Part shown: positions 21,989 through 27,777 of the stretch, piece after piece
How the letters are laid out: the number at the start of each line of letters is the position of its first letter
Numbering within the stretch: position 1 is the first letter of the stretch
DNA from: Bacillota bacterium
Lineage (GTDB): Bacteria; Bacillota; Sulfobacillia; JABLXB01
Length of the DNA: 64,000 nucleotides
Assembly (NCBI GenBank): GCA_013178305.1
Contig: JABLXB010000001.1
Location: 140,203 to 204,202 of the forward strand
Direction: 5' to 3'
Translations under genes and position numbers: made by a program
The notes under the pieces: generated by a model
What the model was told of the DNA's origin: nothing
What the model saw: the letters and a program-made list of their open reading frames with translations, nothing else
Database searches by the model: none

Positions 21989-22117
21989 TTCGCTTACATC
22001 TTACTCCACCGGAGCTCCGGAGTCAAATCCATCAGACAGCCCACCGCACCGCTTGTCGAACGGAAATGGTTGCGGACGCCGATGTGCGATGTATACTTAG
22101 ATGTAGGAGGTGGGCTC

Positions 22118-22387
22118 TTGGAGCGGATGGTGAGGAAACAACTATACATCACCTCGGAACACGAGTCGAAGCTGAAGTCAAAGTCGAGCGAGACCGGGGT
22201 GAGTGAGGGAGAAATCGTCAGGGAGGCACTGTCGAGATACCTGGACTCCTCCATTCCCCGGAAGCAAGGGCTCTCCAACTGGGAAGACGAGATGGCCTTC
22301 ATCAAGTCACTTCAAGCGAAGGGCCCAGTTCCCGGAGGCCGCACCTGGAAGAGGGAGGAACTCTATGACAGGCCCCGCACTGATTGA
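22118..22387 (+). CDS. vapB: ribbon-helix-helix (CopG-like) antitoxin of a VapBC pair
   Basis: The segment LYITSEHESKLKSKSSETGVSEGEIVREALSRYL fits an RHH fold. TTG 22118 lies after a GGAGGTG RBS. The ORF overlaps the PIN gene start by 23 nt. Confidence 0.55.
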   Translation: MERMVRKQLYITSEHESKLKSKSSETGVSEGEIVREALSRYLDSSIPRKQGLSNWEDEMAFIKSLQAKGPVPGGRTWKREELYDRPRTD

Positions 22388-22790
22388 CTCAAACATCCTG
22401 GTATACGCGTACGACCGATCGGAGATGGAGAGGAGCCTCGTGGCGAGTGACGTGATTAACAACCTCGCCCGGACCGGCTTGTTGATACTCAGTTCGCAGG
22501 TTCTTGCCGAGTTCTTCGTGGCGGCCACACGGCGTATTCGTCACCCGCTCACGGCGTCCGAGGCTACCCGGTCTGTCCTGCGCTACGCGGCCGACTTCCC
22601 CGTCGTAGCCATCACCGGGCCAATTGTGCGCGAGGCCCTTAGAGGAGTGGCGTCTTATGGTCTTAGCTACTGGGACGCTCAGGTGTGGGCCACGGCCCGG
22701 CTCAACCAGATTGAAACCATTGTTACGGAAGATGTGCCGTCGCAGGACGAGATCGAGGGGGTCAGGTATGAGAATCCATTCGAGCATTGA
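22365..22790 (+). CDS. vapC: PIN-domain toxin
   Basis: MTGPALIDSNILVYAYD ... TEDVPSQDE carries the characteristic PIN acidic residues. ATG 22365 has a GAGGGAGG RBS. Confidence 0.65.
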   Translation: MTGPALIDSNILVYAYDRSEMERSLVASDVINNLARTGLLILSSQVLAEFFVAATRRIRHPLTASEATRSVLRYAADFPVVAITGPIVREALRGVASYGLSYWDAQVWATARLNQIETIVTEDVPSQDEIEGVRYENPFEH

Positions 22791-22893
22791 CGACGGCCGG
22801 CGACCTCAGTGGCACGAAAAGAAGAGGGCGGCTCGGCTATCCCGCCCCCTCCTGGACCATGAGCCCCGCTTCAGTTTCCGGTGGACGAACCCC

Positions 22894-23718
22894 CTAGGTT
22901 GTACCTGATCCACTTGGCGCCTGAGCCGGAGGTTCCTCCTGGTCCTGCGCGGGGTCATCAGGGTACTCCTCGAGCGGCTGGTCCCCCACTACCACAGTAC
23001 CCGAGTCATTGTCGAAATCGACTTCGCAGCCGAGCGCCTGAGCGATGAACCTGAGGGGGATGACCGTCCTGCCGTTGATCGACTTCGGGGGGACGTCCAG
23101 CTCGACCGGCTGCTCATTCACCAGCGCGGTCCTCGTTTCGAGCTGCAACCTGACTACCGTGTCACCCTTGGAGATGACTACCGTGCGGGTCTCGGCCTGC
23201 CACTCGACCGTCGCGCCCAGCGCTTCGACGAGGGCACGGACGGGGACCAGCGTCCTGCCGTCCTTGATGACGGGCGGCACGTCGAACGAGGGCTTCTTCC
23301 CGTTGACGAACACTTTGAGCGACCGGTCACCTTTCTGCGTGTAGACCCTGTACATGTTCGTATACAGGTTACGGTTCCGCGGATCGATCTCGATCGCCTT
23401 TTGCAGCGCCTCGAGGGTTTGGGCGGTATCCCCGGCGTCCTCGTGCATCCGGGCAAGTTCTTTCAGCGCGTGAACGCTGTCCGGGTGCTCGGAGAGGTAC
23501 TTCTTTAGCCCCTCCAGGGCTGCGGCGCGGTTCACGGCCGCTTTGATCATCTCCTTCACCTGAGCACGATCCCTTGCCTTTTCCCGGTCCCTCTCCTGCG
23601 TCCTGTCCTGCTCCGCATCGGAGGAGTTGGTCTGCGGGGCCGCAGCTGCAGCCGACCCCGCAACCAACACGGTGACGAGTATCACCGCCAGCACCGCAAA
23701 GCCAGTCGTCCTCTTCAT
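22894..23718 (-). CDS. secreted protein with signal peptide, TPR-like helical region and a C-terminal copper-amine-oxidase N-terminal-like (stalk) domain; paralog A
   Basis: Start at MKRTTGFAVLAVILV (GAGGAGG RBS). The C-terminus SLKVFVNGKKPSFDVPPVIKDGRTLVPVRALVEALGATVEWQ is about 80% identical to the 24622..25681 product. Confidence 0.7.
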   Translation of the reverse strand: MKRTTGFAVLAVILVTVLVAGSAAAAAPQTNSSDAEQDRTQERDREKARDRAQVKEMIKAAVNRAAALEGLKKYLSEHPDSVHALKELARMHEDAGDTAQTLEALQKAIEIDPRNRNLYTNMYRVYTQKGDRSLKVFVNGKKPSFDVPPVIKDGRTLVPVRALVEALGATVEWQAETRTVVISKGDTVVRLQLETRTALVNEQPVELDVPPKSINGRTVIPLRFIAQALGCEVDFDNDSGTVVVGDQPLEEYPDDPAQDQEEPPAQAPSGSGTT

Positions 23719-23761
23719 AGTCCCATACCTCCTCGTTCTTGATCCCGGCGGTCTCACTCAT

Positions 23762-23794
23762 CTCATACGCGGAACCGATGATATTTTGGGGGGT
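23762..23794 (-). promoter_or_regulatory. SigI-type promoter (-35 ACCCCCC, 18-nt spacer, -10 CGTATGA) for paralog A
   Basis: The minus strand reads TACCCCCCAAAATATCATCGGTTCCGCGTATGAG, matching the SigI consensus of a poly-C -35 with a CGWA -10. Confidence 0.5.
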
Positions 23795-23827
23795 ACCCAC
23801 CGAAGCGCGCGGGCCCCATCGTATTGA
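23795..23827 (+). promoter_or_regulatory. SigI-type promoter (-35 ACCCACC, 18-nt spacer, -10 CGTATTGA) for sigI, back-to-back with the previous element
   Basis: ACCCACC GAAGCGCGCGGGCCCCAT CGTATTGA lies immediately upstream of the sigI RBS (GTGAGGGG). The leader would be very short. Confidence 0.35.
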
Positions 23828-23837
23828 TAGGTGAGGG

Positions 23838-24512
23838 GTGGGTGTGGAAGCTGGCCTGGGCACCGACATCTCGAGAATAAAGGAAGACAGGCGCCTGCGG
23901 GACTCCTTCCTGGAATCCCACCGGGAGTTCGTAAGGAGATACGCGTCGTTTGTGTCGCATCGCCCGTTAAATTGGGAGAACGATGACGAACTCAGCGTGG
24001 GCCTGATCGCCCTGAACGACGCGATAGACTCGTACGACCCGCGCGCCGGAGTGGGTTTCCTGAGCTACGCGAAGGTGCTCATACGTCGGCGCCTGATCGA
24101 CCAGTTCAGGAAATCGGCCGCGCTGGACGTCGAAGGGCCGCTGGAAGACGACATGCGGGTTGCCGCCCGGACCGCCCCGGATGATGAGGAAAGACTCGAG
24201 CGGGCGTACGAGATGTCGTGTTTCGAGCAGCGCATGGCGGAGTTCGGGATAACCCTGAACGATCTTGTAAGAAACTCTCCCAGTCACCGGCCGACCCGAC
24301 AGACGCTGATGCAGGTAGCGCTGGCGGCCTACAGGTGTCCGGAAATCGTGCAGCGACTGCGCACAACAGGGCAACTTCCACTGAAGGAGATCCAGATGAT
24401 AACGGGTTGCAGCCGGAAGGTGCTCGAAACCTGGCGCAAGTATCTAATCTCTCTCATCGTCATCCTCACCGAAGACGAGCTCGAAGGCACACGGGAGTTC
24501 ATATTTGGGTAG
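23838..24512 (+). CDS. sigI: RNA polymerase sigma factor SigI
   Basis: LIALNDAIDSYDPRAGVGFLSYAKVLIRRRLIDQFRK aligns with B. subtilis SigI region 2, and the length is right. Start is GTG 23838 or GTG 23844. Confidence 0.8.
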   Translation: MGVEAGLGTDISRIKEDRRLRDSFLESHREFVRRYASFVSHRPLNWENDDELSVGLIALNDAIDSYDPRAGVGFLSYAKVLIRRRLIDQFRKSAALDVEGPLEDDMRVAARTAPDDEERLERAYEMSCFEQRMAEFGITLNDLVRNSPSHRPTRQTLMQVALAAYRCPEIVQRLRTTGQLPLKEIQMITGCSRKVLETWRKYLISLIVILTEDELEGTREFIFG

Positions 24513-24621
24513 CCGTCGCAGGCGCAGGTGGGTCGTTCTGAAACCGCCAAAGCCCGGGCGTGCATGAAGAGGGCGGCGTCTTCACAGCCGCCGCCCTCTT
24601 CATGTTGCCCCCAATTCTGCG

Positions 24622-25681
24622 CTACTGCCCTTCGCCAACCATGACCATCCCTGACGCCCCGTCATAACTGATTTGATACTTCAGCGCCTCTCCAACGAAC
24701 CTCAGCGGGACTACAGTCCGGCCGTTCAACGACTCGGCTGGTACGTCCAGTTCCAGAGTCTTCCCGTTCACAAGGGCCGTCCTGGACTCCAGTTGCAGCC
24801 GGATCACCGTGTCACCTTTCGATATGATTACCTCGCGGGTCTGCGCCTGCCACTCCACGGTCGCCCCCAGCGCCTCGCTGACTGCCCTCACCGGGACAAG
24901 CGTCCTACCATCCTTGATGACGGGCGGCTGGTCGAAAGCCGGCCTCTTCCCGTTCACGAACACTTTCAGGGATTTCTCGCCCATCTTCGCATACAACCTT
25001 TGCATGTTCCTGTACAGGTTGTGGTTCTTAGGTTCAAAGGCAACCGCCTTCTCCAGAGCCTCTACTGCCTCGTCATCGTCCCCGTTTTCCTCATGGAGTG
25101 TGGCCAGGGCCTTCAGCGCCTCTTCGCTGTCCGCGTGCTCCTTGAGGTACGCCCGCAGCTGTTCCATCGCAGCCAGTCGATTGGCTACTGCGGTTTTAAG
25201 CATTCCCTCCACTTGCGCCTGCTCTTGTTCCTCTTCCTTTCCCTCCTTCAGATCCTCCAGCAGTTCCTTGGCTTCCTCCAGGCCGGGGTTCTCCTTTGCA
25301 TACTTCTCGGCATCTGCAATGGCCTCATCCAGATTGCCCGCCTTCGCCAGGGCCTCGATCGCCCTCAACCGTTCGCGGACGTTCTCCTGGAGCGTGGCCC
25401 ATTCCTTCTCGCGCTCACGCGCCTTTTCCGCTGCTTCCTCAGCTTCCTCGTCGACCTCACCGTCGTCCTCATCATGGGCGGCACCGTCGTCCTCATCATG
25501 GGCGGCATCGTCGTCCTCATCATGGGCGGCATCGTCGTCCTCATCATGGGCGGCATCGTCGTCCTCATCATGGGCGGCCTGAGGTTTGCCCAGCGCCTCC
25601 GCCGAGCATAACCCGTACGATCCAGCCATCGACGCCAGCAAGAGCACGCCTACGAGCACAAGTACAATCGCCTTCTTCATT
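24622..25681 (-). CDS. secreted protein with signal peptide, acidic His-containing tandem repeats, TPR-like region and a C-terminal copper-amine-oxidase N-terminal-like domain; paralog B
   Basis: Start at MKKAIVLVLVGVLLLASMAGSYG (perfect AAGGAGG RBS). Contains (AAHDEDDD)x5 and a C-terminus paralogous to 22894..23718. Confidence 0.7.
25461..25578. repeat. 24-bp tandem repeat, about 4.9 copies (CGTCGTCCTCATCATGGGCGGCAY), inside the paralog B gene
   Basis: Read directly. It encodes AAHDEDDD repeats on the minus strand. Confidence 0.85.
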
Positions 25682-25785
25682 TTCGTTGCCTCCTTGTGAA
25701 GACTGACTACGCCTTCCTGCCAGAAACCGAGATGCTTGAGCCATTCCGCCAGCCGGCTGAAATCGCTCACCGGTCTTTTGATAAA

Positions 25786-25818
25786 TAAATACGGATTGTA
25801 GGCGTTGAATTGGGGGGT
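25786..25818 (-). promoter_or_regulatory. SigI-type promoter (-35 ACCCCCC, 18-nt spacer, -10 CGTATTTA) for paralog B
   Basis: The minus strand reads ACCCCCCAATTCAACGCCTACAATCCGTATTTA, about 100 nt upstream of the start codon. Confidence 0.5.
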
Positions 25819-25851
25819 ACCCACCAATACGTTGCGGTCCCTTCGTATTAG
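25819..25851 (+). promoter_or_regulatory. SigI-type promoter (-35 ACCCACC, 18-nt spacer, -10 CGTATTAG) for rsgI
   Basis: ACCCACC AATACGTTGCGGTCCCTT CGTATTAG, followed by a GTGAGGGGG RBS and GTG 25868. Confidence 0.35.
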
Positions 25852-25867
25852 GAAGTGAGGGGGCAGC

Positions 25868-27175
25868 GTGTCTACGAGGCGCTGGACTGAAGAGGTGGCA
25901 GCGGTGCGCTACGACGACATTGGACCGGGTAAAGGGCTGGTCATCAAGGTTCAGGGTAGCGAGTATTACGTTGTGTCCAGGGATTGCCGCTACTTGCGAC
26001 TCAGAGTCCGTGGCGTCGCACCGCGTCCCGGTGACATCGTCTGGCTACCTGCGACTTATCCGTCCCTGGTTCGCATCGCCATCGCAGCCTCCGTCCTACT
26101 GGTGATTGCTCTGGGAACTGCGGCGGTTGCGCTTCAGCGACAACCTGTTGCCTATATCGCTCTCGACATTAACCCAAGCGTCGAGCTAGGGCTCAACCGC
26201 TGGGAGAGGGTTGTGACCACCCGGGCGTTTAACCACGAGGGTTCGCTGCTTCTCAACCAGGTCTCGCTCAATGGGACGGGCATGATCAGCCGTCCGGCAG
26301 GGGAAGCGCTTGCCTCCATCGTTGAAGCCGCTATTGAGCACGGGTTCCTGTCACGTGAAGAAGACAACGTTATTCAAGTCGCGCTGCTGGCCCGGGAACG
26401 CCATTCACAGGCAATGGAGGAAAGTCTGCGAGAGCAGGTAGCGACAGTCTTGGAAAAGCGCGACGTGTCAGCGTATCTCAAGGTAAGAAGGGCCAGCCTT
26501 GAAACGCGAGATGCGGCCCGGAAGGAGAATCTCACGGTGAACGCCCACCTGTTGAAGAAGGAGGTCCAGGCTCAAGGTCTGGGCTCCACCGTGGCGGACT
26601 GGAGCAGACCACCTAAGGAGATTATTCGGAAAGTGGGAACCGGGAGGCTCTTTGATGCTAACGAATTCATAGGACATCACAGGAGCCGTGAGGAGACCAC
26701 AGGTGGTGCAGGGACTCCTCCGGTGTCTCCCGCGAACAGCGTCGGGGAGCCGGGCGCCACCACGGAGCCGATTCACGGTCGCGATCGCGCCGGGAAGAAC
26801 GACCCGACGGTCCCGCGACGTTCGCCCAAGAGGCCCAGCGGCAGCAGCGGCACGGTCAGGACCGGGGTGAAGCCCGGCTCTCAACCTGAGGCGGGCGACG
26901 CCAATCGTAGCCCCGCCGCTGGCAATACCGATTCGGGGACAGGGACACCCGTAGCGCCATCAACGCCAGCGCCGACTCCGCACGCGCCAGAGCAGCTGCC
27001 TCCGGGGCAACCTCCAGCGGGACAGTCTCCGGCAGGGCCACAACAGGAAGACGGCAAAAGCACGAACCCGGAGGCCCCGTCCTGGGAATACGACGAGAAC
27101 GAGGAAGAAGAACCGCACGAGGATGAGGATAAGGATGACAGCCCGTCACGAAGAGGGAAACCGGGCGGCAATTGA
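25868..27175 (+). CDS. rsgI: anti-sigma-I factor RsgI (N-terminal RsgI_N domain, single TM, extracytoplasmic domain, then a long Pro/Gly/Ser/Thr-rich tail)
   Basis: N-terminus YDDIGPGKGLVIKVQGSEYYVVSRDCRYLRLRVRGVAPRPGDIVWL matches RsgI_N. The TM helix is LVRIAIAASVLLVIALGTAAVAL. The region after the TM helix begins YIALDINPSVELGLN. Confidence 0.75.
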   Translation: MSTRRWTEEVAAVRYDDIGPGKGLVIKVQGSEYYVVSRDCRYLRLRVRGVAPRPGDIVWLPATYPSLVRIAIAASVLLVIALGTAAVALQRQPVAYIALDINPSVELGLNRWERVVTTRAFNHEGSLLLNQVSLNGTGMISRPAGEALASIVEAAIEHGFLSREEDNVIQVALLARERHSQAMEESLREQVATVLEKRDVSAYLKVRRASLETRDAARKENLTVNAHLLKKEVQAQGLGSTVADWSRPPKEIIRKVGTGRLFDANEFIGHHRSREETTGGAGTPPVSPANSVGEPGATTEPIHGRDRAGKNDPTVPRRSPKRPSGSSGTVRTGVKPGSQPEAGDANRSPAAGNTDSGTGTPVAPSTPAPTPHAPEQLPPGQPPAGQSPAGPQQEDGKSTNPEAPSWEYDENEEEEPHEDEDKDDSPSRRGKPGGN

Positions 27176-27225
27176 GCAGCGCCCGGTTCCTATCTTACGC
27201 GACCCCTGCACGACGCACTGTGCGC

Positions 27226-27777
27226 CTACGCCATCGTGCGTGCCTCCCGGCCGGCGAATTCATATCCGGCGTCAAGCGCCTTCCTGTTCATCTCCAGCGC
27301 GCGCTCATTCGGCGAGTTCTCCTCGAGCGCCTTATAGAGCGCCCCCCTGTCGACCACGGACGTGAGCGCCGCCGCGACACCAACCATGACGACGTTGGCG
27401 ACCCGCGGGTCGCCGAGCGACGCTGCGATGTCATTGACCGGCACGCGAACGACCTTGATGTCCTCGCGGTCGACGGCCTTGCCCACCAGGGACGAGTTGA
27501 CCAGCAGGTAGCCGCCTGGAACGACTGCCCCCACGAACTTATCCAGCGACGGGGCGTTCATCACGACCGCCAGGTTGGGCCGGTTCACGATCGGCGAGCC
27601 TATCCCGGACGTCGACACCACGACCGAGCAATTGGCCGTGCCGCCCCGCATCTCGGGTCCGTAGGATGGGAGCCAGGTGGATTCCTTGCCCTCGAGCATG
27701 CCCGCGTAGGCCATGATCTTGCCCATGAACATCACGCCCTGCCCGCCGAATCCCGCGAAAACGAATTTCTCAAGCAC
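27226..27777 (-). CDS. korC: 2-oxoacid:ferredoxin oxidoreductase gamma subunit
   Basis: 183 aa beginning MLEKFVFAGFGGQGVMFMGKIMAY, the typical POR/KOR gamma N-terminus. Confidence 0.85.
   Translation of the reverse strand: MLEKFVFAGFGGQGVMFMGKIMAYAGMLEGKESTWLPSYGPEMRGGTANCSVVVSTSGIGSPIVNRPNLAVVMNAPSLDKFVGAVVPGGYLLVNSSLVGKAVDREDIKVVRVPVNDIAASLGDPRVANVVMVGVAAALTSVVDRGALYKALEENSPNERALEMNRKALDAGYEFAGREARTMA

Follow-up and report, generated by a model that had tools for sequence, protein, structure and literature searches.

How does the gene for an anti-sigma factor come to be transcribed when it no longer stands beside the gene for its sigma factor? SigI and RsgI have been studied as sensors of envelope stress and of polysaccharides, and their genes form, to our knowledge, a near-universally translationally coupled, autoregulated operon. 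The question is raised by a stretch of DNA of 64,000 nucleotides (nt), here called the window, from a Bacillota bacterium (Sulfobacillia, JABLXB01; assembly GCA_013178305.1, contig JABLXB010000001.1, positions 140,203 to 204,202 of the forward strand), in which sigI and rsgI are separated by a complete gene on the opposite strand. The region immediately upstream of rsgI (25785-25852; module 2) is, judging from its sequence and conservation, probably a working promoter region, the second copy of a compact pair of divergent SigI-dependent promoters, the other copy of which (module 1) precedes sigI. Four genes make up the 22.8-27.2 kb region of the window:

22894-23718, minus strand: parA, encoding a secreted protein of 274 amino acids (aa) with a short architecture (signal peptide, TPR region and Cu_amine_oxidN1 or "stalk" domain)
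23844-24512, plus strand: sigI, 222 aa, GTG start
24622-25680, minus strand: parB, a paralogue of parA encoding a secreted protein of 352 aa with a long architecture (TPR and Cu_amine_oxidN1)
25868-27175, plus strand: rsgI, 435 aa, with an RsgI_N-like region, a transmembrane segment, RsgI_M and a low-complexity tail

A repeat search showed that a 53-nt block at 23786-23838 recurs at 25810-25862 (75% identity, offset 2024). The two copies are identical over TTGGGGGGTACCCACC (16 nt), TCGTATT and GTGAGGGG, and each carries ACCCxCC-N18-CGTA on both strands. An earlier interpretation made from the letters alone (the sequence-only reading) had located this second copy with correct coordinates and strand readings, whereas its description as an almost identical 60-bp block was overstated. 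Transcription start sites (TSSs) were predicted from the numbering C-14 G-13 W-12 A-11 of the -10 element CGWA (PMC10575876). The elements of the two modules are as follows:

23761-23828, both strands: module 1, back-to-back SigI-type promoter pair, from pattern matches and conservation
Module 1, minus half, facing parA: -35 ACCCCC (23794 to 23789), CA, extended -35 AA, N15, -10 CGTA (23769 to 23766), predicted TSS 23755
Module 1, plus half, facing sigI: -35 ACCCAC (23795-23800), CG, extended -35 AA, N15, -10 CGTA (23820-23823), predicted TSS 23834
25785-25852, both strands: module 2, back-to-back SigI-type promoter pair, from the repeat, pattern matches and conservation
Module 2, minus half, facing parB: -35 ACCCCC (25818 to 25813), CA, extended -35 AT, N15, -10 CGTA (25793 to 25790), predicted TSS 25779
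Module 2, plus half, facing rsgI: -35 ACCCAC (25819-25824), CA, extended -35 AT, N15, -10 CGTA (25844-25847), predicted TSS 25858
25857-25870, plus strand: ribosome-binding site (RBS) GAGGGG and GTG start, at offset 58 from the block start, in the same register as the RBS and start of sigI in module 1

On the minus strand, module 2 thus reads ACCCCCC-N18-CGTATTTA (25818 to 25786), and on the plus strand ACCCACC-N18-CGTATTAG (25819-25851), followed by the RBS GAGGGG (25857-25862) and GTG at 25868. No gap separates the two -35 elements, which together form an imperfect palindrome, GGGGGGT being followed directly by ACCCACC. In module 2 the hexamers occupy 25813-25818 and 25819-25824, their centers being 6 bp apart, so that they would lie on nearly opposite sides of the helix; the predicted divergent start sites are 79 bp apart. 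The predicted parB leader is 99 nt long (TSS 25779, ATG 25680), in agreement with the distance of 100 nt given in the sequence-only reading if the C of CGWA is taken as -14.

For Bacillales, the SigI promoter consensus has been compiled as ACCCCC--AA-N15-CGAA----T; in clostridial SigI promoters, the -10 element is CGWA (PMC4711584, Table 1 and text). All four half-sites are in the register of this consensus and have the exact 15-nt spacing between extended -35 and -10 (ACCCNC-NN-A-N16-CGWA), a spacing also found in five related loci (L002, L005, L006, L091, and L092). The minus half-sites of both modules match the -35 hexamer at 6 of 6 positions and the plus half-sites (ACCCAC) at 5 of 6; ACCCAC also stands upstream of sigI in L030, L031, L041, L061, and L067. 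The -10 element is CGTA in every case (4/4). The pattern ACCCNCC-N16-20-CGTA has six matches in the window (0.73 expected), and four of these are the half-sites described here. With the spacing fixed, ACCCNCNNA-N16-CGWA occurs exactly four times in the window, always in these modules, compared with 0.16 expected and with none of 100 shuffles reaching four; when one mismatch was allowed (with CGTA as the -10), only three more matches appeared, which is the level of chance. A chance origin of the half-sites is excluded. A structured RNA or riboswitch in the repeat was considered and rejected, as no Rfam family matched the intergenic regions (E ≤ 1) and the modules and leaders folded no better than shuffled sequences (z = -1.3, -1.8, +0.7, and +0.5).

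Whether the modules have been maintained was judged from related loci. The closest SigI homologues are few and lie on short contigs from NCBI, Logan, and ENA; 80 GTDB genomes were additionally scanned for sigI loci, and none was closer than 47% SigI identity. The close relatives, with their SigI identity to the window, are:

L092, 81% over the covered part: short par, module and sigI (par facing away from sigI); plus half ACCCAC-CG-AA-N15-CGTA, minus half ACCTCC-CT-AA-N15-CGTA
L005, 79%: contig begins at the plus -35 (ACCCACCGAA-N15-CGTA); sigI and rsgI overlap (ATGA)
L091 (identical to L001), 60%: divergent par, module, overlapping sigI-rsgI, then PTA_PTB, HlyIII and ECF transporter
L002, 59%: HMA-ATPase, divergent par, module, sigI
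L006/L007, 57%: divergent par, module, sigI, 8 nt, rsgI

The core GGGGGGTACCCACC and its TACG/CGTA flanks at N18 are invariant in L002, L006/L007, and L091, whereas the spacers differ. L092 has a single -35 change (ACCTCC on the minus side), and in L005 the plus half is present. With 26 of the 68 module positions designated as motif positions beforehand, on the basis of the literature consensus, pairwise identity between modules was 22-25 of 26 at these positions and 13-21 of 42 at the others (Fisher p 3e-4 to 3e-7). The two copies in the window follow the same pattern as orthologues, with 22/26 identical motif positions and 17/42 elsewhere, and their spacers (9/18 identical on the plus side, 5/18 on the minus side) resemble each other no better than those of orthologous modules do. 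The sequence-only reading had seen conservation extending beyond the boxes; with 17 of 42 positions identical, the remainder is in fact near saturation. That the boxes have been kept while everything else has been randomized argues for selection on module 2, rather than for a recent copy, and module 2 thus appears to be maintained by selection. The distance from CGTA to the G-rich RBS, 13 nt, is conserved in L002, L005, and L006.

Beyond this close family, to which the abutting palindromic form is confined among the loci compared, sigI loci in the 80 GTDB genomes often have a single site of the form ACCCCC or ACCCAC...CGWA upstream of sigI. A second site on the opposite strand is found 70-130 bp away in L030 (Desulforamulus aeronauticus), L041 (a Desulfotomaculum metagenome-assembled genome [MAG]), and L059 (Clostridium sediminicola), and ∼210 bp away in L023. 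Such outward-facing pairs suggest that divergent SigI control beside sigI may occur more widely than the palindromic form does. When JGI metagenomes were searched, the complete two-sided pattern had no matches; the one-sided pattern matched three contigs, none of which encodes a SigI, RsgI, or Par homologue, and these were discarded as chance matches.

The assignment of the two regulatory proteins is based on domain and structure matches. The gene models of sigI (P0001), rsgI (P0042, starting at 25868), parA, and parB (P0043) are identical to database proteins, all of them encoded on a single contig of 1.14 Mb from a MAG labelled as an uncultured "Firmicutes bacterium". SigI of the window combines sigma-70 region 2 (Pfam Sigma70_r2, 4.9e-9) with the SigI-specific C-terminal domain; SigI models account for its ten top NCBIfam matches (8e-55 to 1e-29), and in the PDB it matches SigI6 (2.8e-25, residues 10-219) and SigI1 (2.5e-21) of Clostridium thermocellum. 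In SigI6, R97, R98, D101, and R104 read C-14 and G-13, and H171 and R172 are minor-groove residues (PMC10575876); all six have identical counterparts in the aligned window protein (numbering from the same source). RsgI has an RsgI_N-like N-terminus (0.0026; 18 bits, below the cut-off of 25; orthologues align from KGLVIKV on), one transmembrane segment (hydrophobic stretch LVRIAIAASVLLVIALGTAAVAL), and the SEA-like domain RsgI_M (1.3e-23; 84.5 bits, cut-off 25.3; Pfam). Residues ∼270-435 (26680-27175) form a low-complexity tail of ∼165 aa, rich in P, G, S, T, and E and lacking a recognizable sensor domain, which may be disordered and have a sensing role comparable to that of the intrinsically disordered region by which B. 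subtilis RsgI is reported to sense cell-wall gaps (PMC9732909). By this analogy, an envelope-related signal is a reasonable guess for the window protein. A search for homologues of full-length RsgI returned only the protein itself and was uninformative, as the tail swamped the word index. ParA and ParB both contain PF07833 (1.3e-40 and 5.2e-38, respectively); ParA also matches TPR families, and ParB has the same domain set with a longer N-terminal part.

In 54 of the 55 comparison loci in which both sigI and rsgI could be located, the start of rsgI is no more than 150 nt from the sigI stop in either direction (median -18), compared with 1392 nt in the window. The canonical bicistronic operon is therefore absent here, and the 1355 nt between the genes are taken up by a hairpin, by parB on the opposite strand, and by module 2. 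The hairpin lies between the convergent genes sigI and parB:

24563-24604: GC-rich 19-bp inverted repeat, 95% complementary

The 109-nt region around it (24513-24621) folds with -59.9 kcal/mol; its z is -5.9 for the plus and -3.9 for the minus strand, and the predicted structure is likely a transcription stop for both directions. SigI ends right after the conserved FIFG, without the tail of 5-13 aa which in every relative reaches or overlaps the rsgI start. Orthologous RsgI N-termini align from V13, which corresponds to the GTG at 25904 and is preceded by an RBS (GAGGTGG). Hence, rsgI has two candidate starts, GTG 25868 with the RBS of the sigI-type module and GTG 25904, the start used by orthologues, with an RBS of its own; RsgI would carry 12 additional residues at its N-terminus in the first case and be translated from a leader of 46 nt in the second. 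The proposal of the sequence-only reading that rsgI has its own SigI promoter, instead of relying on read-through from sigI, fits both the consensus and the hairpin and antisense parB that lie between the genes, while the activity of this promoter is predicted.

According to the mechanism we propose, SigI holoenzyme would recognize each half-site independently and transcribe outward. At module 2, it would start at ∼25858 in one orientation to transcribe rsgI, and at ∼25779 in the other to transcribe parB; at module 1, it would start at ∼23834 (sigI) and ∼23755 (parA). Four SigI-autoregulated transcription units would thereby replace the usual layout of par divergent to sigI-rsgI. Positive (sigI) and negative (rsgI) feedback would both be retained, as in the canonical system, but the ratio of sigma to anti-sigma factor would be set by two promoters and two RBSs, not by translational coupling. 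The C-terminal domain of SigI contacts DNA in the manner of winged-helix regulators with palindromic sites (PMC10575876, section 7), which makes it conceivable that two holoenzymes occupy the imperfect palindrome; it is just as possible that they compete for the upstream zone that they share. In the former case, a pair of SigI holoenzymes on abutting -35 sites would parallel a dimeric winged-helix regulator on its palindrome.

How did the arrangement arise? The sequence-only reading had the promoter module duplicated along with the secreted-protein gene. The bidirectional SigI-type module itself is borne out by the consensus and by the conservation footprint, but this history is too simple, as ParB does not derive from ParA by recent copying. 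A recent tandem duplication of parA was rejected because ParA pairs with P0046, the divergent neighbor of sigI in L092, and ParB falls outside this pair (neighbor-joining bootstrap for ParB joining the two, 23/500). ParA and P0046 are 72% identical overall (76% over ungapped columns); both are short in architecture and end in an acidic tail. At 55-56% identity, ParB is about equidistant from ParA, P0046, and P0045 (L091), and it retains the longer, ancestral N-terminal region of P0045 and P0047 (L002). SigI and RsgI disagree likewise:

Window against L005: SigI 80% aa and 76% nt identity; RsgI 44% aa and 56.5% nt identity
L001 against L006, as control: SigI 76% aa and 74% nt identity; RsgI 57% aa and 69% nt identity

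The RsgI identity between the window and L005 is no higher than that between the window and L001 or L006. The phylogenetic affinities of ParB and RsgI conflict with those of ParA and SigI. Both flanks of the region are syntenic with relatives (L002 has the left-hand HMA-ATPase, and L091 the right-hand PTA_PTB and ECF transporter). The discordance suggests an old paralogous par-sigI-rsgI cassette that lost sigI, with the first cassette losing rsgI; the duplicated unit was probably the whole par-promoter-sigI-rsgI cassette. After an old in-place tandem duplication, the left cassette would have lost rsgI, with SigI cut right after FIFG, and the right cassette would have lost sigI, the RBS and GTG of which would have remained, joined to rsgI at a point 12 codons before its native start. 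The missing SigI tail and the sigI-type RBS and GTG retained in register in module 2 are the features that point to this course of events, and the RsgI of L005 would then be a paralogue of that in the window. Duplication and loss would be the simplest history fitting the facts. The complete scheme, in which reciprocal loss created "cross-cassette" sigma and anti-sigma partners, each under its own two-way palindromic SigI promoter, is put forward tentatively. Neither 25871-25903, when inspected for remnants of sigI, nor 24513-24621, for remnants of rsgI, showed convincing similarity; both stretches are too short. A terminator-like hairpin follows parA as well:

22816-22852, minus strand: 12-bp GC stem followed by UUUU (RNA fold of 22795-22893, minus strand)

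The 12-mer GAAGAGGGCGGC is common, in the same orientation, to the hairpins downstream of parA (22819-22830) and of parB (24566-24577), so that the old duplication may have taken in the terminator.

Several points weigh against this interpretation of the locus. At the level of the promoters, the plus-strand -35 is ACCCAC instead of ACCCCC; the extended -35 is AT in both directions of module 2, compared with AA in module 1, although its first A is kept in 4/4 half-sites; and the T four bases past the -10 is present in just two of the four (module 1 plus and module 2 minus), the base being A in module 1 minus and G in module 2 plus. The predicted plus-strand TSSs fall within the Shine-Dalgarno sequence (AGGGG...) and leave leaders of 10 nt (23834-23844 and 25858-25868), which is unusually short; sigI leaders of C. 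thermocellum are 16-61 nt long (PMC4711584). Two RNA polymerases would share the upstream zone from -40 to -55, which makes simultaneous use in both directions uncertain. The hairpin at 24563-24604 has no clear U-run, and a simple terminator scan did not call it. The NCBIfam scores of SigI are below the curated cut-offs (185.9 vs 244). As for the history, the case for duplication and loss is built on a few short contigs, with unequal evolutionary rates as the main alternative explanation of the discordance, and an RsgI derived from another cassette than SigI might not bind it.

Of the other explanations, the one that survives best, though we consider it unlikely, sees in module 2 a leftover of the duplication that is decaying. 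Either module 1 would be the sole working promoter or, in module 2, just the half toward parB would work, and rsgI would be transcribed from an unrecognized promoter or by read-through. Such decay would account for the greater distance of module 2 from the consensus (AT for AA in both directions, and G for T past the plus -10), and the start of orthologous rsgI genes at GTG 25904 with its own RBS means that the module-derived RBS and GTG could be vestigial. A relic, however, should decay uniformly, whereas the two copies differ far more outside the consensus positions than at them, as orthologous modules do, and the old divergence of ParB and RsgI would have left ample time for erosion. As to its sources of rsgI transcription, no sigma-70-like promoter was found in 22700-27400, and read-through from sigI would have to cross the 19-bp GC hairpin and 1.06 kb of antisense parB.

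Less probable still is that GGGGGGTACCCACC is the operator of a dimeric regulator of both divergent genes, with the CGTA flanks being incidental. The core does hold a perfect 8-bp palindrome, GGGTACCC, which is invariant in five modules, and a repressor could share it, given the winged-helix-like DNA binding of the SigI C-terminal domain (PMC10575876). An operator would not explain why all full modules agree in having TACG and CGTA at exactly N18 on the two sides but differ in the 18-nt spacers, nor why each half corresponds in sequence and spacing to the experimentally derived SigI consensus (PMC4711584). Moreover, a palindrome is not required in distant sigI loci, which have a half-site in one orientation or two half-sites 70-130 bp apart, and in L092 the palindrome is degraded (AGGGAGGTACCCACC) with both CGTA spacings kept.

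That the split is an assembly artefact, with loci of two related populations stitched together, is hardly credible even though the source is a MAG and the left and right blocks differ in phylogenetic affinity, because a homologous chimeric join would have given a colinear par-sigI-rsgI with a switch point and not a tandem layout with truncated sigI, hairpin, complete extra gene, and second module, because the longest exact repeat between the blocks (16 nt) is too short to mislead an assembler, and because the contig is 1.14 Mb long with both flanks syntenic with relatives.

The secreted proteins are recurrent companions of the system. Par-type genes adjoin sigI-rsgI in many distant loci, with a SigI-type site upstream in L003/L008, L011, L027, and L052, and are thus recurrent candidate members of the SigI regulon. 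TPR/Cu_amine_oxidN1 genes were found within a few kb of sigI-rsgI in nine loci (L009, L010, L011, L027, L028, L042, L044, L052, and L067); they span Dethiobacter, Neomoorella, Desulfotomaculum, and other Bacillota in varied orientations, some with matches to SigI-type promoters. The association looks conserved. In Clostridia-like genomes, secreted proteins with TPR and "stalk" domains may therefore be a recurrent SigI target, which would give a functional lead for a common uncharacterized domain family. ParB itself contains, just past its signal peptide, an acidic, histidine-containing stretch of the AAHDEDDD type that is absent from ParA and from every relative; it is encoded by four to five head-to-tail units of a 24-nt tandem repeat (25430-25573, minus strand). 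On the far side of parA, two overlapping small open reading frames (22070-22790, plus strand) lie between a gene for an HMA-type P-type ATPase and parA. The second encodes a PIN-domain protein (PF01850, 2.9e-11) and the first has no Pfam match; the pair looks like a VapBC-type toxin-antitoxin system and, as the ATPase gene directly adjoins par in L002, appears to have been inserted in the window. A VapB/PIN pair directly follows rsgI in L003.

How, finally, does the locus compare with known SigI systems? With PsigI of B. subtilis and other Bacillales (Tseng and Shaw, compiled in PMC4711584), it shares the -35 hexamer, the first A of the extended -35 (which is AA in module 1 and AT in module 2), the 15-nt spacing, and CGWA, as well as the location directly upstream of sigI, which implies positive autoregulation. 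Here, in contrast, the promoters form a back-to-back pair with abutting palindromic -35s, CGTA replaces CGAA, the plus -35 is ACCCAC, and the module occurs twice, its second copy facing rsgI alone on the plus side. The closest precedent for the anti-sigma gene is sigI5/rsgI5 of C. thermocellum, where rsgI5 is likewise not translationally coupled and has its own predicted sigma-I-dependent promoter, which was active with sigma-I6 in a B. subtilis host (PMC4711584). Those genes are adjacent, with 97 nt between them. In the window, the 1355-nt interval is taken up by a hairpin, a complete gene on the opposite strand, and a bidirectional module, and the promoters of rsgI and sigI are paralogues of each other. 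The sigma-I promoters of C. thermocellum, including those in the cryo-electron microscopy structures RPo-SigI1 and RPo-SigI6 (PMC6056542, PMC10575876), resemble the half-sites in having CGWA at -14 to -11 and an A/T-rich minor-groove element 3' of the specificity region, the contact residues for which are conserved in the window SigI. Clostridial cellulosome promoters differ in their strong AAA(A) tract, 13-14 nt spacing, and varied specificity regions, whereas the -35 here is of the C-rich Bacillales type, and the predicted targets are secreted TPR/stalk-domain proteins, not cellulosome components.

As with divergent promoters in general, two outward-facing promoters share one short intergenic region with central sequence symmetry. 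Divergent bacterial promoters are said to fall into the classical categories of Beck and Warren, and bidirectional promoters with a symmetric -10 were reportedly described by Warman et al. in 2021; in the present modules, the symmetry resides instead in the abutting -35s of an alternative sigma factor. Our search found no relevant literature on bidirectional or divergent SigI-type promoters, or on SigI together with proteins carrying the copper amine oxidase N-terminal domain, which is weak evidence of absence. With the same reservation, no description was found of the abutting palindromic two-way form, of its occurrence twice in one locus, of a full opposite-strand target gene separating sigI from rsgI, or of an apparently mosaic origin of the pair. 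The promoter type itself (Bacillales PsigI and C. thermocellum sigma-I) and an rsgI with its own sigma-I-dependent promoter (PMC4711584) were already known.

The modules define a very compact divergent SigI-type promoter that is conserved in a small uncultured lineage of Bacillota, and the locus is a natural variant for asking how much a fixed stoichiometry of sigma to anti-sigma factor matters. If reciprocal loss did occur, it would represent a natural uncoupling of the sigma/anti-sigma operon into two feedback arms. Measured against the systems described so far, the finding extends a known one and overturns nothing in its current understanding.

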